Below, one piece after another: positions 3,409 to 20,892 of a stretch of 64,000 nucleotides of DNA. The stretch lies in the IMG/VR virus record IMGVR_UViG_3300019742_000001. One strand, 5' to 3'. Position 1 is the first letter of the stretch; every line of letters starts with the position of its first letter. The notes beneath the pieces are model-generated. The model was given only the letters and a program-made list of their open reading frames with translations. It was not told the origin of the DNA and made no database searches. A program made the position numbers and the translations under genes. The DNA comes from a virus (taxonomy: Duplodnaviria; Caudoviricetes).

Positions 3409-3415
3409 ACAAAAG

Positions 3416-3486: not shown

Positions 3487-3509
3487 ATAATTGTTTCTAT
3501 GAATATATC

Positions 3510-4163: not shown

Positions 4164-4190
4164 CTATCTCCTAGTTTGCGTTTAATTTAA

Positions 4191-4276
4191 TGGAGGAAGA
4201 CAGGGAATTCGAATCCCATCCTGTTACAGACGAACCGCTTAGCAGGCGGACCTAACACCTCGTTAGTTTATCTTCC
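4191..4276 (-). tRNA. trnS: tRNA-Ser(GCT)
   Basis: CCGC-ctGCTaa-GCGG, long variable arm, CCA. Confidence 0.92.
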
Positions 4277-4281
4277 ATATA

Positions 4282-4596: not shown

Positions 4597-4612
4597 TGTT
4601 ATATCCTTTAAA

Positions 4613-4688
4613 TGGAGCCGACAACAGGAATCGAACCTGTAACACCCTCATTACAAGTGAGGTACTCTGCCAATTGAGCTATGTCGGC
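4613..4688 (-). tRNA. trnT: tRNA-Thr(TGT)
   Basis: CCTCA-ctTGTaa-TGAGG, canonical cloverleaf, CCA. Confidence 0.95.
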
Positions 4689-4691
4689 AAA

Positions 4692-4780
4692 TGGAGGAAG
4701 GTAAGGGATTCGAACCCTTAACGGGTATTACACCGCTACTTGTTTTCAAGACAAGCTCCTCGTCCAACCGGACACCTTCC
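4692..4780 (-). tRNA. trnS: tRNA-Ser(TGA)
   Basis: CTTGT-ctTGAaa-ACAAG, long variable arm, CCA. Confidence 0.95.
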
Positions 4781-4839
4781 ATTTTCTCTTTAATACTATA
4801 CAACAAAACCTTAATTTTACTTTATACTATGAAAGAAAG

Positions 4840-4871
4840 TAAGGGTGGGTCTGAGATTACGACCCACCTTT
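4840..4871. terminator. GC-rich hairpin, possible terminator or processing stem
   Basis: AAGGGTGGGTC...GACCCACCTTT inverted repeat. Confidence 0.45.
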
Positions 4872-5147
4872 GTTAGAACTTTCGTTAGATTATCCGTAGG
4901 GGGCAACCCTTTGGTTCCTAACTTATCCACACATCATTCCAATGTGTATTCCAACGTGACTACCTTTTTTAAAGAGTGGTTTTTCTCTTGTCCTGTAAGT
5001 CTATTCAATACTTTGTCTACCCTAGTGAGTAATTAATTCCCTAAGTGCGACTCCCTATCAACACTCTCCAACTTGCGGTCTTTGAGTGCCCCAATTCACA
5101 ATACATGTTGGGGATTAAGCCACTTTCAACTTACAGCGGGGCCAACT

Positions 5148-5228
5148 TTGCGTTTACAATATTGGAATTGAACCAATAAATGTCAGATTAGAATTCTGAT
5201 TGACAACCTTTGTCAGATTGAACTATCC
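5148..5228 (-). pseudogene. degenerate tRNA-Arg(TCT)-like element
   Basis: T arm ATTGG-TTCAATT-CCAAT and TCAGA-atTCTaa-TCTGA present; acceptor stem and CCA poor. Confidence 0.45.
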
Positions 5229-5230
5229 AT

Positions 5231-5697
5231 GATGTGTGACCCCTGTGGATTCATAACCTTGCGATTACAAAATACCACACACCATATATCTTTCCCTTTT
5301 GTATCGGTACTCAATGGTTTTTCAAGATTTTGTCTGCCTCCTCACAAAGACACCCAATACCTATCAAACTACGAACCGCCCTTGACACTACTCTCAGACT
5401 ATGTTCATTATCCCTTATCTTTCATAAATGGAATGTTTGGTATGTAGTATTTCGGTACCACCCGAAACTCGTTTAGACCAGTGTTACCCACCTAAACTTT
5501 TTCCTACACATCCGTCATTACTTATGTCCACCTACTACAGTGAACACCCTTTACGGGAAGATGAGACTTGTTTGGTTATCCATTCGAAAATGGCGGGGAA
5601 GTGATAGAACTTACCCCTTTCGTTACGTTTCCGTAATTTATTTGTTGACACCAAACTGCCAATTTTATATTTTCAAAGATCGTTCTGTTTCAATGTT
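5231..5697 (-). ncRNA. large structured ncRNA, GOLLD/ROOL class candidate
   Basis: ~470 nt without a credible ORF, purine-rich on the minus strand, own promoter, inside a tRNA cluster; 3' part GGTGTGTGGTATTTTGT..CAAGG..ATGAATCCAC..CACATC resembles GOLLD-class 3' domains from memory. Confidence 0.55.
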
Positions 5698-5702
5698 TGT
5701 CT

Positions 5703-5731
5703 ACTATAACAACTTGTTCTGTCTTTGTAAA
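5703..5731 (-). promoter_or_regulatory. sigma70-type promoter TTTACA-17-TATAGT followed by boxA-like GATCTTTGAAAA (5670-5681)
   Basis: Direct reading; 17-bp spacing. Confidence 0.75.
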
Positions 5732-5752
5732 CCACCTTTTTAATTTTAATTT

Positions 5753-5828
5753 TGGTGCGGGTAGTAGGGTTTGAACCTACGACGTACGATTTAAAAGACC
5801 GTTACTCTACCAACTGAGTTATACCCGC
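5753..5828 (-). tRNA. trnK: tRNA-Lys(TTT) copy 1
   Basis: ACGGT-ctTTTaa-ATCGT, CCA. Confidence 0.9.
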
Positions 5829-5839
5829 TCAGTTTTTAA

Positions 5840-5916
5840 TGGTAGGGATGACAGGAATCGAACCTGCATTGTACGAGTTAAAAGCCCGTTGTAAAACCAA
5901 TTTTTACTACATCCCC
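5840..5916 (-). tRNA. trnK: tRNA-Lys(TTT) copy 2
   Basis: ACGGG-ctTTTaa-CTCGT, CCA. Confidence 0.88.
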
Positions 5917-6016
5917 ACAGACACATTTGTTTTACGTGTCCGTGGGAGTGTGTTAATCTCTTATCCCAAGAACACGATGAGTTTATCTTGTTTTCGTTTC
6001 ATCGTTAATCTCCTGT

Positions 6017-6304
6017 TTATTTTTTGTCAATAACTAAATTCATTTCTGTAACATATTTTCTTAAAATAACATAAGTTCCAAACTTATGTGTAATATTATA
6101 CTTTTCACTATCCCTTGTCAAGAACCAACTATAAATTTTATAAAGTTCTCTGTAATCGGTGTTTGTCAACTGTCTAACCGACAAATTACTTTCACGGTTG
6201 AATCTAATCGTCAAAACCCAAATATCTGGCAGTTTAGGTCTTGGTGTCTTTGGAAGTGTACCATTAATCGTAAAAAACTTGTATACCCATTCCTTCATAC
6301 TCAC
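6017..6304 (-). CDS. hypothetical protein
   Basis: ORF with RBS GAAAGG. Confidence 0.55.
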   Translation of the reverse strand: MSMKEWVYKFFTINGTLPKTPRPKLPDIWVLTIRFNRESNLSVRQLTNTDYRELYKIYSWFLTRDSEKYNITHKFGTYVILRKYVTEMNLVIDKK

Positions 6305-6316
6305 ACCTTTCGTTTA

Positions 6317-6541
6317 TTAACACTGGAAATAAATGTCATCAACGATTTCAATATCCGTTAACGATTCCAACTCTTCAATTGCTGATGTCTGTGTAAGACT
6401 CTTTAAGTGTATTTGTGGATAACACCATCCAGTTTTTACATTCTGGAAAGATTTGGTCACATCCTTTAACATAAAATAGTAACCTTCATTGTCAATACTC
6501 TTTAATAATATACCTTTTCCAAGTAGTGTTTCATTATCCAT
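6317..6541 (-). CDS. hypothetical protein
   Basis: ORF with RBS AAGGA. Confidence 0.55.
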   Translation of the reverse strand: MDNETLLGKGILLKSIDNEGYYFMLKDVTKSFQNVKTGWCYPQIHLKSLTQTSAIEELESLTDIEIVDDIYFQC

Positions 6542-6683
6542 ACAAATTCCTTTATTGGATGCCGATCTCTCCCCAACTTCAAAATCCTAAGTGGTATCGA
6601 CTACGCTCCCACTAACTTAGACCTTCTACGTGGAAGAATCCCTCTTTTCGTTCTCCACACCTCAGCGTGAAGTTTTACGACTC

Positions 6684-6839
6684 TTACCTACCTTGACCAC
6701 GATATCGTTTGACACCACGTTTCTTATTCCGTTTTTTCTTTTCTGGTCGTGAACATTTACCACCGCCAATCGTGGTCACCATCTTTCTACCATTAATCGA
6801 TTTGTCGTTTGCTGTTGTTCCTCTGATTTTCTTAGCCAT
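6684..6839 (-). CDS. small basic protein ending KRYRGQGR (51 aa; absent from ORF track)
   Basis: MAKKIRGTTANDKSINGRKMVTTIGGGKCSRPEKKKRNKKRGVKRYRGQGR; RBS GAAGGA; promoter TTTACA-17-TATTAT at 6873-6901. Confidence 0.75.
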   Translation of the reverse strand: MAKKIRGTTANDKSINGRKMVTTIGGGKCSRPEKKKRNKKRGVKRYRGQGR

Positions 6840-6916
6840 TTCGTTTCCTTCTGTTAGTGGTTAATTTCAATAATAATAACACTCTGTTTCAATAATGTAA
6901 ACTATCTTTTTAAAAA

Positions 6917-6994
6917 TGGTAGGAGTAGAGGGATTCGAACCCATCACTTTATGCCGTTTAAAGACACTGACTCTGCCAATTGGTCTATACTCCC
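6917..6994 (-). tRNA. trnL: tRNA-Leu(TAA), short variable arm
   Basis: GTGTC-ttTAAac-GGCAT, A73, CCA. Confidence 0.8.
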
Positions 6995-7050
6995 ATATAA
7001 ACTTAGTTGTTGATAGTGGTCGTTACCCCACTAATTCTTCCGATTTCCAC

Positions 7051-7130
7051 GGTTACTCGCTGTGTATTGGAACAGGTTACACCTGCACTTCCCCGTTTAT
7101 AGGGTGTCTCCTAATTACCTATTACGAACC
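7051..7130 (-). pseudogene. degenerate tRNA-like element
   Basis: CCC-tataaac-GGG and GCAGG-tgtaa-CCTGT arms, no CCA. Confidence 0.3.
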
Positions 7131-7206
7131 AATGATTTCAGGTAATACAGTCTCTTTAAAGTCCATGTTCGATTACAGACTACATGACTTACATGTTTAT
7201 CAACAA

Positions 7207-7395
7207 CTATTTCTTTTCTTCTACTGTATCACTTAAATCATGGATTGTCCCACAATTATCACAATAAATATTTACTGATGGATCAAAGACAACTTCTTCA
7301 TCTGACATATCATGACCTTCTGGATCGATTGAGTATGTAAATGAATCATTACACCCACAGTTTCCACATATAACATGTAATCTCGCCCTTACCAT
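7207..7395 (-). CDS. small Cys-rich Zn-ribbon-like hypothetical protein
   Basis: CGNCGC...CDNCG; RBS GGAG. Confidence 0.6.
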   Translation of the reverse strand: MVRARLHVICGNCGCNDSFTYSIDPEGHDMSDEEVVFDPSVNIYCDNCGTIHDLSDTVEEKK

Positions 7396-7413
7396 ATCAA
7401 TCTCCGTCTAAAT

Positions 7414-7491
7414 TGGTGTTCCTAGTGGGATTCGAACCCGACAATAATCGCTTATAAGGCAACCGTTATAGACCATTTTAACTACAGGAAC
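7414..7491 (-). tRNA. trnI: tRNA-Ile(TAT)
   Basis: GTTGC-ctTATaa-GCGAT, A73, CCA. Confidence 0.82.
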
Positions 7492-7498
7492 GTGTAAC

Positions 7499-7574
7499 TG
7501 GTGGATCTCCACGGACTTGAACCGTGATAATACGTCTTATGAGGACGCTGCTCTACCAATTGAGCTAAAGATCC
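7499..7574 (-). tRNA. tRNA(CAT), elongator Met or Ile2
   Basis: GCGTC-ctCATaa-GACGT, canonical cloverleaf, CCA. Confidence 0.9.
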
Positions 7575-7578
7575 AAAA

Positions 7579-7655
7579 TGGTGTCCCCGATAGGATTCGA
7601 ACCTATGACTAATAGCTTAGAAGGCTACTGCTCTATTCCGCTGAGCTACGGAGAC
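7579..7655 (-). tRNA. trnR: tRNA-Arg(TCT)
   Basis: GTAGC-ctTCTaa-GCTAT, CCA. Confidence 0.95.
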
Positions 7656-7663
7656 ATGTAACT

Positions 7664-7768
7664 TGTAATATCACTTTAACGAATGCTTCACCATATTTGC
7701 CCCACCGACAGTCAAGCCGAGGAGGGAATCGAACCCTCTTTCTTTCGTCTTGCAAAAGTGATATTACA
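7664..7768 (-). ncRNA. YrlA-like Y RNA (permuted tRNA mimic)
   Basis: 14-bp terminal helix; GACGAAAG fits GNCGAAN(0-1)G; order is T arm, closed acceptor-like stem, then D-like loop. Confidence 0.7.
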
Positions 7769-7774
7769 TAAATT

Positions 7775-7851
7775 TGGTCAGGAGTATCGGGTACGATCCG
7801 ATATACACAGAGTCACAATCTATGCGATTAACCATTTATCTTAACTCCTGA
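7775..7851 (-). tRNA. trnH: tRNA-His(GTG), U-1:A73 type
   Basis: ATAGA-ttGTGac-TCTGT; T loop ATCGTAC; CCA. Confidence 0.85.
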
Positions 7852-7859
7852 TGATTTGT

Positions 7860-7948
7860 AATACTCAGTGAGGGAATTGAACCCTCATCTCTCCGTCGAG
7901 GTAGTGATCTAATCCGTCTAGGGATATCCGTTTGATCTAACTGAGTAT
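7860..7948 (-). ncRNA. tRNA-like RNA with expanded D loop
   Basis: ACTCAGT/ACTGAGT acceptor, T arm TGAGGG-TTCAATT-CCCTCA, no clear anticodon, no CCA. Confidence 0.5.
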
Positions 7949-7955
7949 AATTTTT

Positions 7956-8029
7956 TGGTACTCCTAGATGGAATCGAACCACCGTTGTCTGGATGTAAGC
8001 CAGTCGTACTACCATTGTACTATAGGAGT
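7956..8029 (-). tRNA. trnV: tRNA-Val(TAC)
   Basis: CTGG-ctTACat-CCAG, CCA. Confidence 0.92.
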
Positions 8030-8204
8030 ATGTTGTAACGTCGCCAATTTACCGTCTGGAAGTCTCTGAGTGGTTTATACTATACTATAGACATCTACCG
8101 AGGAATATAGTATTCGTGTGTTCCACATTACCTACCGCTAAATAGGTTTTCCTTCTCTACAGATTCATTATCCGATTGACACGAATAAATCAGCTATTAT
8201 CTTA

Positions 8205-8282
8205 TGGTAGCCCGTGAGGGTGTTGAACCCTCCCTTTACACCGTTTGAAGATGCTCCCTCTGCCAACGTGGGGTAACGAGCC
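8205..8282 (-). tRNA. trnL: tRNA-Leu(CAA), short variable arm
   Basis: GCATC-ttCAAac-GGTGT, CCA. Confidence 0.8.
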
Positions 8283-8344
8283 ATAACTTTCTGTCTCAAT
8301 GTTTTTACATAGTAACCTATCATATAAACATTGTCAACTAATTA

Positions 8345-8409
8345 CTTACTGAGGTTGGAGTCAAACCAACATTTGTCTAAAAGGTCTTGCTCAATCGCAT
8401 CCTACAGTA
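8345..8409 (-). pseudogene. degenerate tRNA-like element
   Basis: GTTGG-TTTGACT-CCAAC T arm, TACTG/CAGTA ends. Confidence 0.3.
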
Positions 8410-8412
8410 AAA

Positions 8413-8552
8413 AGGAGGGTAGGATGAGTATCGACCTCATCTTCCTTGGTCCCCACTCTCAACGGTACCGTCTCCAAGTGGTTTCTTTTGTTTACACGGT
8501 TCACATCTAAGGTTTCTGTGGTACCACTTTCACCGTTGATGTCCGACTACCC
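8413..8552 (-). ncRNA. ~140-nt tRNA-like ncRNA
   Basis: GGGTAG/CTACCC terminal stem, GATGAG-GTCGATA-CTCATC T-like arm, internal TCAACGGT/ACCGTTGA helix. Confidence 0.55.
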
Positions 8553-8560
8553 ATAATATT

Positions 8561-8636
8561 TGGTGGAAGAAAAGGGAATCGAACCCTAAAGACCCTCTGT
8601 ATGCAAAACAGAGTCGCAACCCCAATGCCTTCTCCC
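8561..8636 (-). tRNA. trnA: tRNA-Ala(TGC)
   Basis: ttTGCat loop, G3:U70, CCA. Confidence 0.92.
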
Positions 8637-8673
8637 ATGATTTTTCATACATAATCGATTTAATTCCGATTAT

Positions 8674-9231
8674 CTATGTAATTTTTAACTTCTTTCGTAT
8701 CATAGTCTCAGATACACCAATTATCTCAGCAATTCTTGAGTTAGTCAAAGTTTTTTTCATTTCAACTAAGTCAAACTTTGACCAATCAACTTTACCTCTA
8801 AGTGATCCAGCACATTTCTTTGAACATGTTGTATATGTTTTTGGTTTTTCTTTACCACAAACAGGACAATACGTTACTTCTGTTTGTATGTAAATCACAA
8901 AATCTTCATCAAAAGTATTATGTGTCTCTGGTAATTCTGTTATACCACTATGAACTTCTTTGTGACAATTTGAACATAAAAGAATACATTTCCTTAGTTC
9001 TTTAACTATATTGTCCCACGATTTTGGATTAGCCATTACATTACCAAATGACAATTCCTTTTCTTCTGGATCAATGTGATGTAATTCTAATGCGTTGTTA
9101 CACTTATCATAACTACATATTTGACAACAACCACCCATTGATTCAACTATTCGTGATTTTGTAGAACTTCTCCACTTTTTTACTGCGTCTGATTGTTTAC
9201 TCACAACAAACCTCCAATTTGATATTAACAA
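8674..9231 (-). CDS. HNH homing endonuclease
   Basis: CQIC..C...LELHHIDP..K...KCILLCSNCHKEVH; TATAAATA late promoter at 9245-9252. Confidence 0.85.
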   Translation of the reverse strand: MLISNWRFVVSKQSDAVKKWRSSTKSRIVESMGGCCQICSYDKCNNALELHHIDPEEKELSFGNVMANPKSWDNIVKELRKCILLCSNCHKEVHSGITELPETHNTFDEDFVIYIQTEVTYCPVCGKEKPKTYTTCSKKCAGSLRGKVDWSKFDLVEMKKTLTNSRIAEIIGVSETMIRKKLKIT

Positions 9232-9268
9232 TACCTGTTAATAGTATTTATAAAAGTTTGTATTAATT

Positions 9269-9343
9269 TGGCTCCGAAGGTAGGGATCGAACCTACGACC
9301 TTGAAGTTAACAGCTTCCTGCTCTACCGCTGAGCTACTTCGGA
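9269..9343 (-). tRNA. trnN: tRNA-Asn(GTT)
   Basis: ctGTTaa loop, canonical cloverleaf, CCA. Confidence 0.95.
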
Positions 9344-9351
9344 ATAAATAA

Positions 9352-9425
9352 TGGTGCCTCTTGGTGGAATCGAACCACCATCAAACGATTATCAGCCGTC
9401 TGCGCTACCGTTGTGCTAAAGAGGC
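9352..9425 (-). tRNA. trnI: tRNA-Ile(GAT)
   Basis: GACGG-ctGATaa-TCGTT, CCA. Confidence 0.93.
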
Positions 9426-9504
9426 ATATAACTAAAAAATGGTTGGTCCGACGAAGACCATAAAGAACCAGAGGAGTCACCTCAACCTGTTCAACCATTA
9501 AACT

Positions 9505-9583
9505 TGGAGCGGATATGGTGAATCGAACACCTTGCGATGGGTTGGAAACCCACTGTCACACCATGTAACTGAGCGATACCCGC
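9505..9583 (-). tRNA. trnG: tRNA-Gly(TCC)
   Basis: GTGGG-ttTCCaa-CCCAT, GCGGGTA acceptor, U73, CCA. Confidence 0.85.
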
Positions 9584-9596
9584 ATTTCTTACTAAA

Positions 9597-9674
9597 TGGT
9601 AGCCCGTGAGGGTGTTGAACCCTCCCTTTACAGTTTCTAAAACTGCTCCCTCTGCCAACGTGGGGTAACGAGCC
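9597..9674 (-). tRNA. trnL: tRNA-Leu(TAG), short variable arm
   Basis: GCAGT-ttTAGaa-ACTGT; body identical to the Leu(CAA) gene. Confidence 0.82.
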
Positions 9675-9705
9675 ATAAAATTAAACTTGATCTGACTACC
9701 CCAGA

Positions 9706-9847
9706 TTGTAACCCCAGAACTTGTGATCCTTGGTTATCAAGTTTTATGATTGTACAAGGAATGACTAATTTCCTCTGGACGTTTCCAATATATTCGGTTC
9801 GAACCAAGTATATCGTATAGACGTGTCTTAAATCGCCTTAGATAGTC
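9706..9847 (-). ncRNA. putative structured ncRNA between tRNAs
   Basis: GACTATCT...GGGGTAGTC terminal pairing, several internal hairpins. Confidence 0.35.
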
Positions 9848-9867
9848 ATACAATCATTTCGTAAATT

Positions 9868-9943
9868 TGGTGGAACCACAAGGTAACGATCCTTGACCTT
9901 CTGGACTTCAATCAGACGTGCAGACCATCTACACCATAGTTCC
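9868..9943 (-). tRNA. trnF: tRNA-Phe(GAA)
   Basis: ttGAAgt loop, T loop ATCGTTA, CCA. Confidence 0.85.
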
Positions 9944-9949
9944 GTAATT

Positions 9950-9986
9950 TGGCAGGGATAGTAGGGATCGAACCCACATCCAAACC
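9950..9986 (-). pseudogene. 3' half remnant of a tRNA-Trp-type gene
   Basis: T arm GTGGG-TTCGATC-CCTAC plus TATCCCT-G-CCA only; abuts the HNH stop codon. Confidence 0.7.
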
Positions 9987-10396
9987 TATTTATTTTTTTC
10001 CATGTAGTGTATTTCTGAGTGACAATTCTTACACAAAACAACACACTTGTCAATTTCAATTATTATCTTTTCCTTGTTCATACCATCCGCCACCATTTTA
10101 CTAACACCCTTTACCTTTTTAGTAGGATCTAAATGATGAAAGTCTAAACAATAGTATCTATCTTCCCCACAATTAGAACATTTCAGGGTTTTCTTGTAAT
10201 CAGCAAACCATAAAGATAACTTTTTTTGTGATCTCCTACTACTTTCAACATACTTCTCTTTATTATCTTCGTAGTGTTTCTTAGTTGATATTGCTTGACA
10301 TACCTTACAATAATACTGATACCCATCATTCTTCGACTTATTCTTGTTGAACTCAGACAAAGATTTTTCTTGTTTACACCTACTACACACCTTCAT
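9986..10396 (-). CDS. HNH homing endonuclease with N-terminal Zn ribbon
   Basis: CSRCKQEK..CKVC; CSNCGEDRYYCLDFHHLDP...KCVVLCKNCHSEIH; TATAAATA at 10415-10422. Confidence 0.85.
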   Translation of the reverse strand: MKVCSRCKQEKSLSEFNKNKSKNDGYQYYCKVCQAISTKKHYEDNKEKYVESSRRSQKKLSLWFADYKKTLKCSNCGEDRYYCLDFHHLDPTKKVKGVSKMVADGMNKEKIIIEIDKCVVLCKNCHSEIHYMEKNK

Positions 10397-10459
10397 AATA
10401 ATCTCCTATGAAAGTATTTATAAAAGTTTCCAAACTATCAACTGTTGTTTGGAGTTAAT

Positions 10460-10533
10460 TGGCAGGGATACAACGAATCGAACGCTGATTAGAGGTGTTG
10501 GAAGCCCCTGTATTACCATTATACGATATCCCT
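10460..10533 (-). tRNA. trnW: tRNA-Trp(CCA)
   Basis: A1:U72, G73, GGGGC-ttCCAac-ACCTC register, CCA. Confidence 0.8.
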
Positions 10534-10702
10534 ATAAAAAATCTGTTATTGCATATTATATTAGCTCTTTCCTTTCACATTGCAGGTGAATTAAGTGATA
10601 AGTGTACTCCACACTAATAAAGGTTTATGCTATACATCTATAACAGAAATTACTGATCTCTCTGGTGGGATTTAAACCCACATTAGTTTCAGAGAGATAA
10701 TT

Positions 10703-10778
10703 TGGTAGTGCTGGGGGGAATTGAACCCACCGTGATCAGATTGAAAATCTGAGATCCTAACCATTAGATGACAGCACC
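10703..10778 (-). tRNA. trnE: tRNA-Glu(TTC)
   Basis: TCAGA-ttTTCaa-TCTGA, CCA. Confidence 0.9.
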
Positions 10779-10898
10779 ATATTCTTTGTAAATTAAATTT
10801 TAAACGGTTACTTTACCGAGAGGATATTCCAATGTAAAGTCTTCCCATATCAACTTTACGAGGAAGGGGGGAACTCAAGATGTTTCACCGTTCAAACT

Positions 10899-10974
10899 TG
10901 GCGCCTCATACGGTATTCGAAACCGCAACAACTTGATCGACAATCAAGCTCCATTCCCAGATGGACCATAAGGC
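10899..10974 (-). tRNA. trnD: tRNA-Asp(GTC)
   Basis: CTTGA-ttGTCga-TCAAG, G73, CCA. Confidence 0.88.
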
Positions 10975-11309
10975 ATTTTCTTTAATTTAGTGGAACAAGG
11001 AGTGTATGCCCTGATTTACTATCCACGTCCTGTGTGGATATCCACTAAAAGGTTTGGTAACCGCACCGTATCCCTTAGACTTGTCGAGGTAGTCGCCGTG
11101 ATTGGTTACCCGTAAATTCTGGTTAATCGGGATTCCATTTCCATCAGCGACCAAGCCAATTTACTACGGTATCCTTTTCACCACGGTCACATAACAATCA
11201 ACTGGTTAGGAATATGCCTCTGTGACCTAAACTTGTCACGGTTTTCGCCTCTCAGGACGGGTCTACATCAAATTAATGATCACCGTGAACCCTCTTTCTT
11301 TCGTATTAA

Positions 11310-11383
11310 TGGTCGGAAAGGTTGGAATCGAACCAACGTTACCTTCGTCCAAGGAAGGGTGAGTACCATTCTCTTACTCTCCG
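11310..11383 (-). tRNA. trnP: tRNA-Pro(TGG)
   Basis: CCTTC-ctTGGac-GAAGG, C1:G72, CCA. Confidence 0.9.
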
Positions 11384-11440
11384 TAATTCTTAAAACATCT
11401 TATCAGGAGTGTTCTCAACTGTCAAGATGTTTATAAATTT

Positions 11441-11523
11441 TGGTGGGAGGCGGAAGATTCGAACTTCTCCCCGAAGGAATGGTTTTACAGACCACTTGCT
11501 AGAGCCACTAGCTTTCACCTCCC
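11441..11523 (-). tRNA. trnY: tRNA-Tyr(GTA)
   Basis: GTGGT-ctGTAaa-ACCAT, long variable arm, CCA. Confidence 0.92.
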
Positions 11524-11597
11524 ATATTTTTTACTTTTTCAAAAAACATTCAATTGTCAAAGATCAGTGTTTCCGTTGTTTCGTTTAACGTGAGATC

Positions 11598-11626
11598 ATC
11601 TTACCAAATCTCTTTCCTATCGTCAA
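11598..11626 (-). promoter_or_regulatory. sigma70-type promoter TTGACG-17-TAAGAT followed by boxA-like GATCTTTGACAA (11554-11565)
   Basis: Direct reading. Confidence 0.75.
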
Positions 11627-11829
11627 CCACTTTCTTTTAGTTTCAATAATTCTTCTTCAACCAATTTGGGATTTACTAGACCACGTGTTTTCTGCATCAC
11701 ACCCTTAAAAACTGTGTTATAAGGAACTTCATTCATTCCAGTTGTGTCTTCATCAAATATTTCATTGATTGCTTTGTATATCTCAAACATATAGGTAATT
11801 CTACTTCCTGTCAACTGTTTTCTTATCAT
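11623..11829 (-). CDS. small protein with GatB/YqeY tail-like C-terminus
   Basis: FKGVMQKTRGLVNPKLVEEELLK resembles the GatB C-terminal G.VMK.T.G.ANP..V. Confidence 0.5.
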   Translation of the reverse strand: MIRKQLTGSRITYMFEIYKAINEIFDEDTTGMNEVPYNTVFKGVMQKTRGLVNPKLVEEELLKLKESG

Positions 11830-11842
11830 ACAAATCCTTTAA

Positions 11843-11914
11843 TGGAGGGTATGGAGGGAATTGAACCCTCGTTCATCGTTTTGCAGACGATACACCGAAC
11901 CATCGAACATACCC
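11843..11914 (-). tRNA. trnC: tRNA-Cys(GCA)
   Basis: ATCGT-ctGCAaa-ACGAT, U73, CCA. Confidence 0.9.
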
Positions 11915-11915
11915 A

Positions 11916-12152
11916 TTAAATTTGAAATAAACTATTGTCTAATATTTCTTGTGTTTCTGGTAATTCTTTTCCTACTGAACCAGTATATCGGTCTTTTAAT
12001 ACCTGACCCGTTGTTATATTCTTAATATAAACAGCATCATACATTTTTCTAACTGGAATCGTTCTACTTGGGTTTGTATCAATGGTCTGATGAATATACT
12101 CAATCTTACCATCACCATAAATATACTTGTATACAAAAAATGAATTTTTCAT
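11916..12152 (-). CDS. hypothetical protein, C-terminal LFxI tag
   Basis: ORF ends DNSLFQI. Confidence 0.6.
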   Translation of the reverse strand: MKNSFFVYKYIYGDGKIEYIHQTIDTNPSRTIPVRKMYDAVYIKNITTGQVLKDRYTGSVGKELPETQEILDNSLFQI

Positions 12153-12433
12153 ATCTCAAATAAACCATCATCTTCTTTGAAGTGGTCATCAGTATACCCT
12201 GTAACTATAAATCCTGTCTCTAACAATCTTTCTATTGTCGGAACATCTAATCTATCAATTTGTATTGGATTTCCAGTATCCATCATTTCACTAATATAAT
12301 CAAGTGACGATCTTAAACCAAAACCTGTACTATTACGAAATGCTTTGATCAAATGAATCTTACCATTACCATTACCAGTTCTGGCTCTGGCTTTAAGTTG
12401 TTTACCAATATGCACATAATATGATTTTTTCAT
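12149..12433 (-). CDS. protein with ribosomal L7/L12 CTD-like motif, C-terminal LFxI tag
   Basis: KIHLIKAFRNSTGFGLRSSLDYI vs the L12 KIxVIKxVRxxTGLGLKEAKDLV pattern. Confidence 0.55.
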   Translation of the reverse strand: MKKSYYVHIGKQLKARARTGNGNGKIHLIKAFRNSTGFGLRSSLDYISEMMDTGNPIQIDRLDVPTIERLLETGFIVTGYTDDHFKEDDGLFEI

Positions 12434-12449
12434 AATGTTACCTTTAAAT

Positions 12450-12523
12450 TGGCGGGGGATGAAGGTATCGATCCTTCGACGCTAGATTCAAAATCTAGTA
12501 TGATTCCATTTCACCAATCCCCT
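12450..12523 (-). tRNA. trnQ: tRNA-Gln(TTG)
   Basis: CTAGA-ttTTGaa-TCTAG, G73, T loop ATCGATA, CCA. Confidence 0.88.
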
Positions 12524-12526
12524 ATA

Positions 12527-12835
12527 TTATGGGAAAAACTTATCCCAATCTGTTTTGTTTAAATACATCGTTCTTGATTTCAAGATCATATCAAGTGAAG
12601 GATAGGTTGTCAATATTTCTTTTACATTATCTTCACCTACAACAGCACTGAATCCTGTTGGGTACAATTCATCAATTATTTGAGGGTTTCCATTAGGTTC
12701 TGTTACAACTTCCACAACAAGAATCCCTTTGTCCCACCATCCTTGACAAGTATCACAAGGTTCATAGTCAAAAAATTCTGGTTTGTCATCCACAATATCA
12801 TCTTTTGACTTTCTACACCAAAAACATATTTTCAT
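12527..12835 (-). CDS. Cys-rich hypothetical protein (start reassigned to MKICFWC)
   Basis: CFWC...PCDTC; RBS GGAG; the longer ORF overlaps tRNA-Arg. Confidence 0.65.
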   Translation of the reverse strand: MKICFWCRKSKDDIVDDKPEFFDYEPCDTCQGWWDKGILVVEVVTEPNGNPQIIDELYPTGFSAVVGEDNVKEILTTYPSLDMILKSRTMYLNKTDWDKFFP

Positions 12836-12857
12836 ATTAAATCTCCGTATTATATAT

Positions 12858-12930
12858 TGGCACCCTATGGAGGAGTCGAACCTCCGTAAGCTGGTTTCGT
12901 AAACCGACCACCGTTTCCCACGGATAGGGT
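12858..12930 (-). tRNA. trnR: tRNA-Arg(ACG)
   Basis: ttACGaa loop, T arm GGAGG-TTCGACT-CCTCC, CCA; atypical D arm. Confidence 0.75.
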
Positions 12931-12939
12931 ACATACAAT

Positions 12940-12968
12940 ACTTTATCATTTGTTTTTCATTTAGTCAA
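12940..12968 (-). promoter_or_regulatory. sigma70-type promoter TTGACT-17-TAAAGT
   Basis: Direct reading. Confidence 0.65.
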
Positions 12969-12987
12969 TATTCAATTTTCAAAGAAC

Positions 12988-13025
12988 AAAAAAGGGTCAC
13001 ATTCTTATATAGAGTGTGACCCTTT
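12988..13025 (-). terminator. intrinsic terminator with upstream antiterminator arm (13053-13065)
   Basis: AAAGGGTCACACTCT/AGAATGTGACCCTTT stem plus U tract. Confidence 0.8.
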
Positions 13026-13056
13026 CGGATAGGTTATGTAAAACTTTCTTACAAGG

Positions 13057-13188
13057 TCACATTCTGTCTCTCACTCTGCCCACACTATAATCAAACCACT
13101 GATTACAAATCGGACGTAACGCTATCATTTCGAAATTCTCTGATTTCGAATGAGTCATCGTTAGATTTGTTGTGAGTTGTGTAGTCAT
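13057..13188 (-). CDS. 43-aa leader peptide (absent from ORF track)
   Basis: MTTQLTTNLTMTHSKSENFEMIALRPICNQWFDYSVGRVRDRM; RBS AAGGA; promoter TTGACA-17-TATAGT at 13220-13248; stop codon lies inside the antiterminator arm. Confidence 0.7.
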   Translation of the reverse strand: MTTQLTTNLTMTHSKSENFEMIALRPICNQWFDYSVGRVRDRM

Positions 13189-13269
13189 TTTTGTGATTCC
13201 TTGTTTAATTTTTTCTTCTACTATAAGTTATTTATGCTTTTTTGTCAACTTTTTTGAAACTTTTTTTCA

Positions 13270-13743
13270 TTATTTAAATTTATCTCGTAACTTATTGTTT
13301 TTATTAATCTTTTCTGTTGCACATTCTTCTTCAATTTCAACATCATCATCAGATTCAGTGAAGATTGATGTAATCTTTAATTTAATTTTTTCTGTCACTG
13401 GTTCTTCTTTTATTTCCTCTTCTACTGGAGCAACTTCAATGTTCACAGACTGTTTAACTCTAACCTGTTCATTCCAAGGTTGCATAAAGAACCCTCTGTC
13501 ACCCTCAGTGATAGCCGATACTTCCAATTTAGCATTATATACACCGTCTTCAAGTCCTTCTATGACAGTTTCTAAAGGTGGAATAGCGAATTGTACATTA
13601 TCCCCACCAGTTTTAGCTTTAAATCCGTAATCAATACCATTAACTTCAACAACAAACTTAAAACGTAACATTTCTTGTTGTATACCCTCTACCAATACTG
13701 GCATAGATAATGATTTTGTCTTCCTCATTTCAAACGTTAACAT
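13270..13743 (-). CDS. hypothetical protein, late/structural module
   Basis: Coupled ORF at the end of a late operon. Confidence 0.7.
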   Translation of the reverse strand: MLTFEMRKTKSLSMPVLVEGIQQEMLRFKFVVEVNGIDYGFKAKTGGDNVQFAIPPLETVIEGLEDGVYNAKLEVSAITEGDRGFFMQPWNEQVRVKQSVNIEVAPVEEEIKEEPVTEKIKLKITSIFTESDDDVEIEEECATEKINKNNKLRDKFK

Positions 13744-13973
13744 TACGTTCCTCCATTCAATGAAAGGTCAATGACCTGTAATACAGTTATATTTATATTT
13801 TCATAGTCATCAAGAACAACTACTTTTTTAATTTTTACAGTTGGTATCGGTTGTTGTACCCTAACTATTGATACTCCACCACCACTACCACCACCACTTG
13901 AATAATCTGGTACTGGTATTTCAACAGTTATCTGTCTATTACGTTTACCCATCCATTTAGGATATACACTCAT
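13743..13973 (-). CDS. hypothetical protein
   Basis: Coupled ORF with a Gly-rich linker. Confidence 0.6.
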   Translation of the reverse strand: MSVYPKWMGKRNRQITVEIPVPDYSSGGGSGGGVSIVRVQQPIPTVKIKKVVVLDDYENINITVLQVIDLSLNGGT

Positions 13974-13983
13974 TTAATACTCC

Positions 13984-14718
13984 TTATGATGGATATGGTT
14001 TAATATATGTTACTTGTCGGTTGTCAGCATTCTCTCCTGTAACAACAATCGTATACAATAAAGTTACTCCATCATCATCAAATACTTGTATCGTATCAAG
14101 AGCACTTACACCTGTACCAACGGTTGATATTCCAACTTTGTTAGTTTGCATCGCCCTACCACGTCTCGCCTCTTCATAAGCAAGATTCAAGGTGGTTTCT
14201 TGTGATGATGTCAGACCTTGTGCTGGAACTTCTACTTCAACGTATACAGGAACTTCTACAACAACTTCTTTTGTCTGAACAACTGTACTAACCAACAATG
14301 AAGTTTGGGAACTTATAGACTTCAGTCCGTCTGGATCAAATCCATAAGGATCTTTTGGATTGTCATTAAGATCATATGCATACAGATTACCTATAATGTT
14401 TGTAGTAGTCGTAGCGTCTCGTTGTCGTATAATCCAGTCATTTAAAAGAAAATATGTATCACCTAATTTCTCTGTATCAGAAATTGGTCTTCCACCCTCA
14501 GTACCAAATGCTTGTAAATACTTAGAATTATCATATAATGATATCCATTCCTTCCAATCACTATACAATTGTTGTTTAACATCAACTTCTGACACATCAG
14601 AAAGAATCCAAATGGTTTTTGATGGTCCGTCAAACATTACAACATGATCAAGGGTAACAGGATCATTATTAAACTTATCCCAATATTCCCACTGTCCTGC
14701 CCATCCACCTTGCAACAT
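13984..14718 (-). CDS. putative virion structural protein
   Basis: LYSDWKEW motif; late operon. Confidence 0.65.
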   Translation of the reverse strand: MLQGGWAGQWEYWDKFNNDPVTLDHVVMFDGPSKTIWILSDVSEVDVKQQLYSDWKEWISLYDNSKYLQAFGTEGGRPISDTEKLGDTYFLLNDWIIRQRDATTTTNIIGNLYAYDLNDNPKDPYGFDPDGLKSISSQTSLLVSTVVQTKEVVVEVPVYVEVEVPAQGLTSSQETTLNLAYEEARRGRAMQTNKVGISTVGTGVSALDTIQVFDDDGVTLLYTIVVTGENADNRQVTYIKPYPS

Positions 14719-16325
14719 TATCTAATCTCTTTCCAATTGAAGGCAACCACTACTTCAATTGGTACTGTATTGTAAAGTTTTGCCCTCAAAGTATAGTGGT
14801 CTGGTTCCAACTCAATATCAGATTTTCTTATAATAATTTCTGTCAACATACTAAAAAAATCGGACAAACTGATGTGTTCATCACCTGTTACTATCCATGA
14901 CATAACAACCTTACCGTCAATTGAACCAGATGCACTAGCAACTTCTAATGCTGATTGAGGATATGATACTCCATTGTCCCACATTGGTGTATCTAATGTA
15001 TCATTTTTAACTAATTCTAGTAACCAAGGATTACCTGTGCTTGTTAATTCAGAAAGAGTAACCATAGTTGGTATGACAACTGACCTATTATCGGTGAGTG
15101 GTGACCCATACTGTTTTCTGGACCTAAAAGATGCTATATGAACCCAATCAACATCATCATCCACAGTTACAGGTTCATCGATGGAACCACCGTAAAGTTT
15201 CTCTGGTGGAGCAAACTTTCCTTCACATGCAACTTTTGCAGCAATACCATACAGGAATGCTGGGTTACCCAACGCACCTACATTTTCCTGTTCCATTGTA
15301 AAAGGAAGTGTACCTGTTCTCATGTATGGATTTGCAAGGTATCCCGCATGATTAAATTCGTGACAAACAATAGGAATACCGTCAATAACAAAACTGAATC
15401 TAACACGACCAGCACCTAACCACTGAAAGTCAATAATCATTATCTGTGACATACCCGGAACTAGTGATTTACCACTAACATTATTAGCATCATCTGATCC
15501 ATCTAGTCTATCTATATTCCATTCGGACTGAGGAACACAAACCTCTTCTATTGATCCATTACATGACGAACGGACACACACACTAATGACACCATCTGTC
15601 ATTTTGTAGTATAATCCATCACTGTCATCAAAAATACCCATTCTTCGAACAACATTAATATAATCACCGCCAGAAAATGCAGAAAACATTACTGTGGTCG
15701 CAACACCTGTTTGGTATTTGTGATAAAGGTTAGTTCTTCTCATACTTCTAGCGCCATTTGTAGTAGGATTTTCCATTACTACAAGATGTCTTGTTTCATC
15801 CCACGAAACTGTAGCACCAAGTTCTTCTGTTTCTGTAAATTCGTCAGACATAGAATTGTGAACGGGTTGATACTCACGAATAGTTGTAGTTTCCGATGTT
15901 TGTAGTTTACCAAACGCATCAAAACTAGGATCACCAGATTCAAAGGTTGTTGTTAACGCACCTCTTACATCAACTGATGCCTTGTTTGTTGGATCATTAC
16001 CACCTGTTATAACAATATCTTGTGTGTATAGTTCGTTGGTGGTACCTGTTGAAGTGGCGAATGTAACACCACCAACTTTCAATGATGTTCCAGACTCCAC
16101 ACTGTTCAGTATAGATTCCATTGAAACAACGATATGAAGATGTCCGCTGAATTGATCACCAGCGACGATTAACACATCACCGTCAAATCCATCATCTGTT
16201 AAGACTTTATCTCCAACACTAAAACTATTACTTCCATTAGTGTAATAAATAGTCACAGTTACAGTCTGTTTGGATTTTTTTCCTGTTCCATCAGGTGGCA
16301 TTTGTATATAATTTAATTCACTCAT
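14718..16325 (-). CDS. putative virion/tail-associated beta-rich protein (DAFGxL family)
   Basis: SFDAFGKLQTS, DFQWLGAGRVRF; TATAAATA at 16363-16370. Confidence 0.7.
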   Translation of the reverse strand: MSELNYIQMPPDGTGKKSKQTVTVTIYYTNGSNSFSVGDKVLTDDGFDGDVLIVAGDQFSGHLHIVVSMESILNSVESGTSLKVGGVTFATSTGTTNELYTQDIVITGGNDPTNKASVDVRGALTTTFESGDPSFDAFGKLQTSETTTIREYQPVHNSMSDEFTETEELGATVSWDETRHLVVMENPTTNGARSMRRTNLYHKYQTGVATTVMFSAFSGGDYINVVRRMGIFDDSDGLYYKMTDGVISVCVRSSCNGSIEEVCVPQSEWNIDRLDGSDDANNVSGKSLVPGMSQIMIIDFQWLGAGRVRFSFVIDGIPIVCHEFNHAGYLANPYMRTGTLPFTMEQENVGALGNPAFLYGIAAKVACEGKFAPPEKLYGGSIDEPVTVDDDVDWVHIASFRSRKQYGSPLTDNRSVVIPTMVTLSELTSTGNPWLLELVKNDTLDTPMWDNGVSYPQSALEVASASGSIDGKVVMSWIVTGDEHISLSDFFSMLTEIIIRKSDIELEPDHYTLRAKLYNTVPIEVVVAFNWKEIR

Positions 16326-16362
16326 CTATATAAAGTTCTCCTTAACTTTCATAACGTACATG

Positions 16363-16396
16363 TATTTATAGGGGGTAGTTGACCTACCCCCTATAA
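16363..16396 (-). promoter_or_regulatory. T4-type late promoter TATAAATA overlapping terminator hairpin TATAGGGGGTAG/CTACCCCCTATA
   Basis: Direct reading. Confidence 0.7.
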
Positions 16397-16417
16397 TACA
16401 ATAATTAAACCATTATG

Positions 16418-18598
16418 TTAAGCTGGGTTAGAGTAATTTCTTTCAAGTGGAGCAACCAAAGATACAGATGCTCCAGTGTTAGTAATTGTTCCTTCCGCTT
16501 GAACATATTGACCAGTGCTTAATCCGATAGCAACAACAACAATATCGGTTTCTGTTGAAGCTACACGACCACCTGTTTCATCACCATCATATGCATATGA
16601 GAACTGATATGATGAACCAGATGCACCATCAGGTACATTATTAGTAACATCAGATCCAACCTCACCAGAAGGTGATTTAATAACTTGAAATGCATTTGTT
16701 GTACCGAAGTCACCCGATGCAACTGATTTGTAATATGCGTAGAATACGGCATCTGAATCAGTAGACAAGTTATTGTTAAAGTTGATTGTAACTGTAACAA
16801 CCAATGGATATGTACGAGCAATACCAGAATAATCATTGAAAACAACATTGTTAGTATCAATTGGTTTCAAATCGTCAATGAAAACACCATCACTTGTCTC
16901 TAGTGTAGCACCAACAAACTCTGATAACAAGTCAGCAACATTACCATTACGACTTGTATCAACATCAATAGTTGTTTCTTGACGTAGTGACCACTGACAG
17001 AAGTCATAAACATTTTCTTTATCACCACCAGATGTGTGAGTATAAGGTGAATCAACTTTCTCATCACCAGAAGTAACAATATTATTAGCGTCAATAATAA
17101 CACTATAAGCATAGAAACCATCTTTTACAAAACGCTCTCCGCCACCTGATGATTTGTCCCAGATTGTCCATGTATTACCAGTATCAGTATTCATATCTGT
17201 GTTGTCTGAATCACCAGTTGTTGAACTAACGTAGTACCAACGAGCACCATCTACATTAGATAGTGAGTTTGTTGCATCATACGCTACATCACCTAATAGA
17301 TATGTTGTACCTGTTGCCCAATCACCTGTAATATTTACAACACCTGTACCTGACTGTGGATTAGGTAGATATGTGATATCAATAACATCATATGGTGATA
17401 CATCGGCAGTACCATCTGTATTTGAATCAATTTGTGTATCAGCAGTTGTTTCAAGGTTAAGGTCTGTTGCATTACTAACAGGGAAACGATACACGATATA
17501 TGTCATAGTAGTAACACCGATATCGGTTAGATTAGAATCAGCATAAACCTTACCACGCTCACGAACATACATTTTGAAATAAGCTGATAAATCAGTAACT
17601 AATGTTGCTGATTGTGATGCCTCAGATGCACCAGTTTCAACGATTGTTATCTCATAAGGACTAACAATACTTGCAACTGTATATGTATCTTCATTTAATG
17701 TTGTTCCTGTTACTGTAATTGAATCTCCAACTTGGAACACGTCTAATCTCGGTCCTGTTGATGTAATACCATTAACACCATCAAATGAAATATCACTTGA
17801 TCCTACAACTTGTGAGTAGATACGTACACCCTCATTAACAGGTCCAGTATACTCTGTATTAGATGTTCCAGCGGTAAATGAACTATCCTGTGCGAAATAT
17901 GGTTGGTCAGTATTATCAACCAAAGTACCCAATGATACAATACCTGATACCCTTTTGTTAACTGTATTATCAGCAAGAACTTCTGACCATCCAGCAGATC
18001 TGATCAATTTACTGGTTGTTGTCTCAAATATACCCTGTGTTACAACATTTGATGTCAATGTTGCAGTAACATCAGCAGTTCCTTCAGCTACTAATGTATC
18101 TGTTGCAACTAATGTGATTACAGTAGACGTTACACTATCAATAGTATAAATACCGTCATTTGATGACGAACCACTTACATTTAATGTATCACCTGATTTA
18201 TAATAATCCGTAAAATCAACTGCACCAGCAGTTGTAATTGTATCTGGGTTACCATCTGCAAAAGTCAAGTCTGTTACTGTAGCCGAAGCACCATCATCTG
18301 GAATCCAAGCATCAATGAATTCAAACTGCTCATTCGTGATTGATAGCATTGGAAAGTCAAATTTAGTGATTGATGCAGTATCTTGCCATCTGTCTTTAAA
18401 AAATGAATATAATGTCTGACCCGTAATACCATCACCAGACGTATCCATATTTCCTGTTCCTTTAAAGTGGAAAGTCTTGTCAACACAGTTAATGTGTATC
18501 TCATCCGTATAATAGTGACCATCCAAATTTCCTGTTCCTGCCGTCCATGATGTGTTAATATCATCTGGATCGACGATTGTGTTTACTATAAAAGCCAT
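16418..18598 (-). CDS. putative virion structural protein with internal repeats
   Basis: T/D/G-rich; repeated GDxLxVSGSxxNDGxYTIxSV units. Confidence 0.7.
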   Translation of the reverse strand: MAFIVNTIVDPDDINTSWTAGTGNLDGHYYTDEIHINCVDKTFHFKGTGNMDTSGDGITGQTLYSFFKDRWQDTASITKFDFPMLSITNEQFEFIDAWIPDDGASATVTDLTFADGNPDTITTAGAVDFTDYYKSGDTLNVSGSSSNDGIYTIDSVTSTVITLVATDTLVAEGTADVTATLTSNVVTQGIFETTTSKLIRSAGWSEVLADNTVNKRVSGIVSLGTLVDNTDQPYFAQDSSFTAGTSNTEYTGPVNEGVRIYSQVVGSSDISFDGVNGITSTGPRLDVFQVGDSITVTGTTLNEDTYTVASIVSPYEITIVETGASEASQSATLVTDLSAYFKMYVRERGKVYADSNLTDIGVTTMTYIVYRFPVSNATDLNLETTADTQIDSNTDGTADVSPYDVIDITYLPNPQSGTGVVNITGDWATGTTYLLGDVAYDATNSLSNVDGARWYYVSSTTGDSDNTDMNTDTGNTWTIWDKSSGGGERFVKDGFYAYSVIIDANNIVTSGDEKVDSPYTHTSGGDKENVYDFCQWSLRQETTIDVDTSRNGNVADLLSEFVGATLETSDGVFIDDLKPIDTNNVVFNDYSGIARTYPLVVTVTINFNNNLSTDSDAVFYAYYKSVASGDFGTTNAFQVIKSPSGEVGSDVTNNVPDGASGSSYQFSYAYDGDETGGRVASTETDIVVVAIGLSTGQYVQAEGTITNTGASVSLVAPLERNYSNPA

Positions 18599-20831: not shown

Positions 20832-20892
20832 TATTTTCTCCTTATTATAAAAAAATCTATCCCATAAAAGTATTTATACAATTAACCACAAC

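Follow-up and report, generated by a model that had tools for sequence, protein, structure and literature searches.

A predicted attenuator at the head of a phage tRNA island

The DNA examined here is a 64-kilobase (kb) stretch of a tailed phage (Duplodnaviria; Caudoviricetes; IMG/VR record IMGVR_UViG_3300019742_000001) from microbial-mat metagenomes, and by "the window" we mean this whole stretch. It carries a transfer RNA (tRNA) island of about 10 kb (2850-12930) with about 31 tRNA genes that cover all 24 decoding classes, the classes being the 20 amino acids with both codon boxes for Leu, Ser and Arg counted separately, plus ATA as distinct from ATY for Ile. At the head of this island lies a compact module that is probably a ribosome-mediated (leader-peptide) transcription attenuator of three RNA segments, gating read-through into the tRNA genes from its own promoter, P1, or from late transcription farther upstream. 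An earlier reading made from the letters alone (hereafter the sequence-only reading) had proposed such a device, built from P1, a ribosome-binding site, a 43-codon open reading frame (ORF), pairing arms A, B and C, a U tract, a boxA-like motif and a second promoter, P2, and every one of these elements was found where it had placed them. They are listed here in the order of transcription, together with the features that lie among them; all are read on the minus strand.

13220-13248, minus strand: P1, a sigma70-type promoter, TTGACA-17-TATAGT (-35 TTGACA at 13248-13243, -10 TATAGT at 13225-13220), predicted to drive the leader
13229-13236, minus strand: CATAAATA, within the spacer of P1 and differing at one position from TATAAATA, the T4-type late-promoter motif
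13198-13202, minus strand: Shine-Dalgarno sequence AAGGA, 9 nucleotides before the leader ATG
13057-13188, minus strand: leader ORF of 43 codons plus TGA (stop codon at 13059-13057)
13126-13152, minus strand: mid-ORF hairpin over codons 13-21, a candidate pause hairpin for RNA polymerase
13053-13065, minus strand: arm A, AGAATGTGACCTT, the 5' strand of the predicted antiterminator, containing the stop codon
13038-13052, minus strand: small hairpin GUAA...UUAC nested in the loop between A and B
13011-13025, minus strand: arm B, AAAGGGTCACACTCT, the shared strand, which can pair with A or with C
12988-13005, minus strand: arm C, AGAATGTGACCCTT (13005-12992), and a T6 tract (12993-12988), forming a predicted intrinsic terminator with B
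12976-12987, minus strand: boxA-like motif GTTCTTTGAAAA, 3' of the T6 tract
12940-12968, minus strand: P2, promoter TTGACT-17-TAAAGT with an extended -10 TG, immediately before the first tRNA gene
12858-12930, minus strand: tRNA-Arg(ACG), the first gene of the island (ARAGORN)

Seven copies of the module

Close relatives of this phage were found neither in INPHARED, searched by DNA, nor in IMG/VR, searched with single neighbour proteins as queries. A search of 5.8 billion proteins with the 157-residue ORF that lies just upstream of the module returned 34 homologues at 60-83% identity. The contigs of these homologues, together with one metagenome pattern match and one alignment-based scan of IMG/VR, yielded another six distinct modules, all from uncultured relatives, making seven with the copy in the window. 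Their leader ORFs and arms are as follows.

Window: arm A GTGACC, arm B GGTCAC, arm C GTGACC
L030: leader ORF 3569-3700; arms as in the window
L123: leader ORF 3143-3277; arms as in the window
L023 (identical in L024 and L025): leader ORF 3549-3668; arm A AGTGGTCT, arm B AGACCACT, arm C TGTGGTCT
L163 (identical in L164): leader ORF 3060-3170; arm A TGTAAGAGGTCT, arm B AGACCGCTTACA, arm C TGTAAGCGGTCT
L168 (identical in L169; L170 differs by two nucleotides): leader ORF 3093-3209; arm A GTGTAATGGTCT, arm B AGACCCTTACAC, arm C TGTAAGGGTCT
L196 (identical in L198, L200 and L209): leader ORF 2925-3026; arm A TGTAGGTGGTTT, arm B AAACCACCTACA, arm C TGTAGGTGGTTT

A promoter, a Shine-Dalgarno sequence, an open leader frame, the three arms, a U tract (a run of five to seven T residues) and P2 are present in all seven modules, the Shine-Dalgarno sequence of the relatives being GGAG or GAGG at a spacing comparable to that in the window. 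The next gene after the module is tRNA-Arg(ACG), as called by ARAGORN in the window, L030 and L196 and as read by eye in L163 and L168; the first tRNA-like sequence after the module in L023 (3800-3900) and L123 (about 3420-3500) has an ACG anticodon and an aberrant, longer body, and receives no ARAGORN call.

We take the module to belong to, and travel with, the tRNA island rather than the upstream structural gene, because in the L196 lineage other genes follow the gene for the 157-residue protein and the module lies about 100 kb away, heading a homologous tRNA island behind a different gene. Eight loci with homologues of the neighbouring genes lack the module because their tRNA island is located elsewhere, and in one such lineage the module was then found at the island head. 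When the arm pattern, the P2 motif and the leader cores were used for scans, nearly all matches were due to chance; the only real ones were L123 and the copies in L198, L200 and L209. Profile searches with the leader peptides added a single further peptide, P0036, and their negatives mean little since the profile failed to match the 33-residue leader in G001.

Three arms that change together

The claim that A and C are near-identical, so that B could pair with either, was borne out: within the 64 kb, exact copies of the core motif AGAATGTGACC are confined to arms A and C, B is its complement, and folding gives A:B when C is left out and B:C when C is included. In the minimum free energy (MFE) fold of the window leader, B and C form a hairpin of 15 base pairs (bp) with one A.C mismatch, and the leader as a whole has a z score of -4.1. 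Folded alone, this terminator reaches -19.7 kcal/mol; a simple terminator scan had missed it because of the internal mismatch. When C is removed, A:B is the MFE structure in all seven modules, at -13.6 to -26.3 kcal/mol. When C is present, the energy of the B:C terminator is -19 to -21 kcal/mol in six modules, and in the remaining one, L196, the local A:B and B:C structures are near-equal in energy. A small hairpin of 4-5 bp lies between A and B in every copy.

The pairing of A with B was judged against a null distribution of 9084 control windows of 40 nucleotides. The A:B duplex of the window has an energy of -15.9 kcal/mol, compared with a control mean of -6.7 kcal/mol (p = 0.002), and the duplex between the A region and B beats the controls in every copy (p = 1e-4 to 1.3e-2). 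There are five versions of the arms among the seven modules (GTGACC, GTGGTC, TAAGCGGTC, TAAGGGTC and TAGGTGGTT), and across them A, B and C change together and stay complementary; the combined p over the five versions, by Fisher's method, is 3.6e-9. Positions 7-8 of arm B in L030 and L123 are complementary to A, not to C. RNAalifold predicted no structure from a MAFFT alignment of the A-B region because the arms lie in different registers among the lineages, and the arms were therefore compared by per-sequence folds, a B-anchored table and the null distribution. A pairing of the translation-initiation region with arm A, which the MFE fold of the window had suggested as a further segment, was set aside as not conserved: the window and L030 show it marginally (p about 0.03), and the five other modules lack it. 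An Rfam scan of 12400-13500 at E values up to 10 returned only tRNAs and sub-threshold chance matches, with no T-box.

The sequence-only reading had named beforehand a lack of conservation of the leader ORF and arm A as the outcome that would speak against it. The opposite was found: the frame is open in all seven modules and its stop codon lies inside arm A or at its 3' edge in each. The main A helix runs from -11 to +9 nucleotides relative to the stop codon, and two modules have short outer pairs that extend it to -19. This is within the footprint of a ribosome, so that a terminating ribosome would cover A. As far as geometry alone can tell, the proposed logic of masking and read-through fits every copy. 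In four of the seven copies, moreover, all decoding classes make their first appearance at least 12-15 nucleotides upstream of A.

A leader peptide conserved in its completeness

The frame of the leader is open throughout the seven modules and each of the other frames has one to six stops, the chance of an open frame being 3-9% per sequence. Within conserved blocks the changes are mostly synonymous (Leu TTA/CTG/TTG, Arg CGT/CGC, Pro CCG/CCA). On these grounds we regard the leader ORF as a gene and infer that it is translated. The peptide itself is far from constant. Identity between the two leader subfamilies is only about 20-25%; a short stretch, VLR, is invariant in six of the seven modules, with VTR in L196.

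The sequence-only reading had drawn attention to an ORF start rich in Thr and to three AGA codons at its end. Both are real in the window, but neither is conserved in the relatives, and they were rejected as control codons. The conserved property of the peptide, judged across these sequences, is instead its completeness. Six of the seven leaders, of 36-44 codons, contain 20 of 20 amino acids and 24 of 24 decoding classes. Under the amino-acid and codon usage of this phage, a single peptide would hold all the amino acids with a probability of 4e-4 to 9e-3, and all the classes with a probability of 7e-6 to 3e-4. Windows taken from real genes reach 24 classes in 0-4 of about 14,500 cases per length, and among 311 small ATG-initiated ORFs in the window and 266 in the related loci only the leaders do so. 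Their codon composition is flat and free of runs, with 12-15 classes having just one codon in each of the six complete modules, the window's included.

Completeness persists while the residues that provide it move. His, for example, is found in LRHENN in L163 and in SLHLAG in L168, with H and G swapped between these two leaders; Gly is retained at either of two sites; and the positions of W, H, C and P differ between the two subfamilies. In a simulation of neutral replacement over five edges of the tree, the joint probability that completeness survives was 3e-7 for the amino acids and about 1e-12 for the classes. The tRNA genes of the window cover the same 24 classes that its leader samples, and by standard wobble the phage tRNAs can read 39 of the 43 leader codons.

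The MFE folds of the seven leaders all contain a mid-ORF hairpin in a matching position, formed by differing sequences and without involvement of arm A; in the second subfamily it is preserved through paired synonymous changes, ACA/ACG with TTT/TTC. From these folds, it may serve to pause RNA polymerase.

Proposed mechanism

We suggest that RNA polymerase starting at P1 would make, in turn, the 43-codon leader ending in A, a 27-nucleotide spacer, B, a 5-nucleotide loop, C and the U tract. With prompt translation, a ribosome would stand on the stop codon within A while B emerges, so that A would be masked and B would pair with C; transcription would then end at 12993-12988 and a leader RNA of about 225 nucleotides would be released. 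With a ribosome delayed more than about 13 nucleotides upstream of A, or with no translation, A would pair with B the moment B emerges, C would stay single-stranded, and the polymerase would run on past the boxA-like motif and P2 to transcribe the tRNA genes. The outcome would thus be set by a kinetic race, and its physiological trigger may be the demand of late infection, starvation or the cleavage of tRNAs by host defences.

With a codon for each amino acid and each decoding class in its path, a ribosome's delay would report a shortage of any charged tRNA species. Since tRNA is also what the switch would deliver, the module would both sense the tRNA pool and feed back on it. More phage tRNA would be the response, giving a negative-feedback homeostat for the pool as a whole. 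One tentative extension, which we hold with clearly less assurance than the attenuator itself, is that the leader is a universal sensor, a near-minimal "pangram" mini-gene through which any depletion of tRNA, whether by host anticodon nucleases, shut-off or starvation, would call up a complete replacement set, making the module a self-regulating counter-defence as well as a translation homeostat. The link to anticodon nucleases had also been raised by the sequence-only reading, and may apply here.

That reading had flagged the downstream promoter as a caveat, and rightly so, since P2 is kept in all seven modules. Its conservation implies that the attenuator would be an additional input to tRNA transcription and not the sole gate, with read-through from P1 supplying some share alongside P2.

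Several observations weigh against the proposed mechanism. With P2 directly downstream and many further promoter-like sites inside the island, the tRNA genes could be transcribed without any read-through. The terminator is the more stable equilibrium fold in most copies, so the model relies on kinetics. No conserved anti-antiterminator was found in the seven modules, and an untranslated leader should for this reason also read through. In three of the seven modules, one or two decoding classes first appear less than 13 nucleotides from A, where a stalled ribosome would mask A rather than free it. The use of one or a few codons per class, without runs, may make for low sensitivity. Finally, completeness has its exceptions: the 33-codon leader of L196 holds 19 of 20 amino acids and 21 of 24 classes, lacking Leu and the AGR codons though its island encodes Leu tRNAs, and the 41-residue peptide P0036 lacks His and so has 19 of 20 amino acids. 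Windows with at least 19 of 20 amino acids are themselves uncommon, at 0.4% for a length of 33 residues and 2.4% for 41.

Promoters and alternative explanations

The sequences around the promoters bear on what the switch would read. P1 agrees with the consensus at 11 of 12 positions and is a joint best promoter match within 4000-17000, and a -35/-10 pair occupies the equivalent place in all six related modules read. The promoter region of each of these six also contains the exact T4-type motif TATAAATA, in place of which the window module has CATAAATA. Elsewhere in the window TATAAATA lies at 16363-16370, 20871-20878, 13790-13797, 10415-10422 and 9245-9252 (minus strand), 20-50 nucleotides 5' of gene starts. 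Its 11 matches overall are no enrichment over the 9.3 expected; it is the placement that is suggestive, and that leads us to infer its use as a late promoter. If sigma70-type promoters were silenced late in infection, late transcription of the island would have to cross the attenuator, which offers a possible rationale for the arrangement.

In one alternative, the switch is real and reads not individual tRNAs but global ribosome availability, or the coupling of transcription to translation. Early in infection, free ribosomes would translate the leader promptly and P1 transcripts would terminate; later, with ribosomes saturated by phage mRNA, translation of the leader would come late and transcripts from late promoters would read through, making the module a temporal switch. 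The anatomy would be the same, and with no conserved anti-antiterminator the untranslated state would indeed be A:B and read-through. The late-type motif, found in the P1 region of six of the seven modules and ahead of genes in the window, fits this account, as do the T4-like core genes of the phage (UvsX-like and gp46/47-like). On the other side, a test of ten window ORFs turned up no late sigma factor of the gp55 type, and a temporal switch leaves unexplained why a set complete for 20 amino acids and 24 classes persists as the leader sequence diverges. We therefore consider this alternative unlikely, albeit the strongest of those we have weighed.

Somewhat less likely still is that the ORF encodes a small protein with a function of its own, that B:C is an ordinary terminator or insulator, stopping transcripts of the micro-gene and late transcripts from upstream ahead of P2, and that A:B does not sense translation but affects only mRNA stability or the efficiency of termination. 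The partial conservation of the peptide, with its VLR and its largely synonymous changes within subfamily blocks, could be read in this way; a leader peptide that acts in trans, peTrpL, has reportedly been described; and P2 directly follows the terminator in all copies, as an insulator would lead one to expect. Yet an insulator requires no arm A, and A co-varies with B in five versions, always at the stop codon. The ends of the peptide diverge freely while the completeness of the codon set stays, no protein family was found to match the leader peptide, and the module moves with the tRNA island, observations that weigh against this reading. As for mere coincidence in an AT-rich intergenic region beside a normal terminator, the one-mismatch search for AGAATGTGACC in the window was only weakly significant (5 matches against 1.7 expected, equalled in 1 of 100 shuffles) and the two completeness properties were spotted after the fact, but a hypothesis formed on the window then held in six independent relatives, and the combined probabilities given above for A:B pairing and for retention of completeness make this explanation highly improbable.

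Sequences beyond the terminator

The boxA-like motif would occur only in read-through transcripts. It is kept in the relatives as TG(H)TC(W)TTGAAAA, with TGCTCTTTGAAAA in L163. Compared by hand with the boxA consensus, TGCTCTTTAACAA, it matches at 9 of 13 positions in the window and 11 of 13 in L163, a partial agreement that varies among the relatives. This predicted motif may have a role in Nus-dependent antitermination; on the other hand, the A-rich stretch that precedes the -35 sequence of P2 falls partly within it, and it could be an UP element of P2 instead. Two further boxA-like sequences, GATCTTTGAAAA and TGATCTTTGACAA, lie at 5670-5681 and 11549-11565 (minus strand), 20-35 nucleotides past sigma70-type promoters, before a GOLLD RNA and a tRNA block.

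The upstream region and -35 sequence of P2 together make up a 19-mer, TTGAAAATTGAATATTGAC, of which exact copies occur in L033 (about 3977, minus strand), L041 (about 3010), L035 and L040, and at more than 120 metagenome loci. It is found in many unrelated phage and metagenome contigs, often forming a promoter with TATAAT 17 nucleotides on, and a tRNA-like 3' end lies immediately before it in L033 and L041. From this distribution, it looks like a widely shared strong promoter or UP design.

Other genes of the island and the phage

Within the island, the tRNA at 10460-10533 (minus strand) is called Gly(UCC) by ARAGORN; its loop is equally readable as CCA, and it has A1-U72 and G73, the identity set of bacterial tRNA-Trp. 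It is probably the island's tRNA-Trp, and is counted in the coverage of all 24 classes by the window's tRNA genes; a separate tRNA-Gly(UCC) lies at 9505-9583. A full-length Rfam match to GOLLD RNA lies at 4847-5285 (minus strand; 183.7 bits against a gathering score of 150), with a tRNA-like element at 5154-5222 inside it. Between the first two tRNA genes, all lineages encode a Cys-rich (CxxC...CxxC) protein of about 100 residues for which no family match was found (window 12527-12835, minus strand; L196 3263-3577; L030 3935-4248). Small ORFs in the islands of relatives have weak or faint matches to the Pfam family Ribosomal_L12 (L023 4515-4781, L025 2151-2417, L030 4340-4855, L163 5065-5480 and L168 4254-4769); the 94-residue island ORF of the window at 12149-12433 has no Pfam match at E <= 0.01 and is a possible L7/L12-like protein, a label that Pfam did not confirm. 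Outside the island, the phage encodes a ClpB/ClpA-type ATPase of 740 residues with a double AAA+ arrangement at 21927-24149 (minus strand), with matches to Pfam AAA_2, AAA_lid_9 and ClpB_D2-small and to a PHROG annotated "ATP-dependent protease".

Relation to known attenuators

The module would share its basic logic with the enterobacterial attenuators trpL, hisL, leuL, thrL, pheL and ilvL: a short leader is translated, and an intrinsic terminator competes for one strand with an antiterminator, so that only one of the two can form and the position of the ribosome decides which. As in those systems, the antiterminator is less stable than the terminator or about equally so, and a hairpin in the leader is a possible pause site. 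The relation between the A:B and B:C energies is the same as in the trp attenuator. The differences are nonetheless considerable. Runs of one regulatory codon are replaced here, in the complete leaders, by at least one codon of every class. There are three segments and no conserved counterpart of the 1:2 anti-antiterminator of trp, such that the untranslated state should read through. The element is encoded by a phage, the genes it would regulate are for tRNAs rather than biosynthetic enzymes, and a second promoter follows the terminator.

Among leader-peptide attenuators, the phage element seems by analogy most like the upstream ORF (uORF) of mycobacterial whiB7, which also combines a uORF of diverse composition with a Rho-independent terminator and an antiterminator and senses general translation stress (PMC10274678). 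The amino acids present in that uORF decide which starvations are sensed, and once its only Trp codon had been removed it responded less strongly to Trp starvation (PMC10274678); single codons can therefore suffice for sensing. The Mycobacterium smegmatis uORF has 19 of 20 amino acids (PMC10274678). The whiB7 uORFs differ in being longer, Ala-rich (25-40%) and variable in the amino acids they hold, and in controlling a transcription factor. The phage leader has one or two Ala residues and is of near-minimal length (24 classes in as few as 36 codons), its completeness is conserved, and its output would be tRNA supply, which would close a direct feedback loop.

Antibiotic-sensing leaders (of the ermC/ermK type, and those of bmrB-bmrCD, vmlR, msrD and yxjB; for example PMC6851288) are likewise similar in that stalling within a short ORF flips a terminator to an antiterminator, and the gene thereby induced eases the translation problem. 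They use arrest motifs specific to a drug or peptide, whereas none is evident here and the conserved feature is coverage of codon classes. T-box riboswitches also choose between terminator and antiterminator for translation-related genes according to tRNA charging, but bind uncharged tRNA directly without a leader ORF, and have no Rfam match here. With boxA-Nus antitermination in rrn operons and lambda the module has in common a boxA-like motif, here placed after the terminator, with comparable motifs after the promoters of two other RNA sub-operons of the island; it differs in that the match to the consensus is partial, varies between relatives and overlaps the upstream region of P2. A full-text search of the literature returned no description of an attenuator before phage tRNA genes, nor of a leader selected for completeness.

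Implications

The tRNA genes of phages are usually discussed in terms of codon usage or of escape from defences that cleave tRNA, and to our knowledge little is established about how their expression is controlled. If the interpretation favored here is correct, the island would be under demand-driven control by attenuation of the trp type, the oldest known RNA regulatory logic, here turned to testing the entire genetic code instead of a single amino acid; since tRNA would be the output, sensor and response would form a direct feedback loop. Its novelty relative to known attenuators would lie in the combination of a near-minimal complete codon set, three segments, a tRNA output and carriage by a phage. 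Such a module would also constitute a compact natural part, of about 230 nucleotides, that reports decoding speed for all codon classes, and it suggests a rule by which similar elements could be sought, namely a short ORF with a complete codon set that ends in an antiterminator arm and stands before tRNA genes. The question of when a phage needs tRNAs of its own would then become directly testable.

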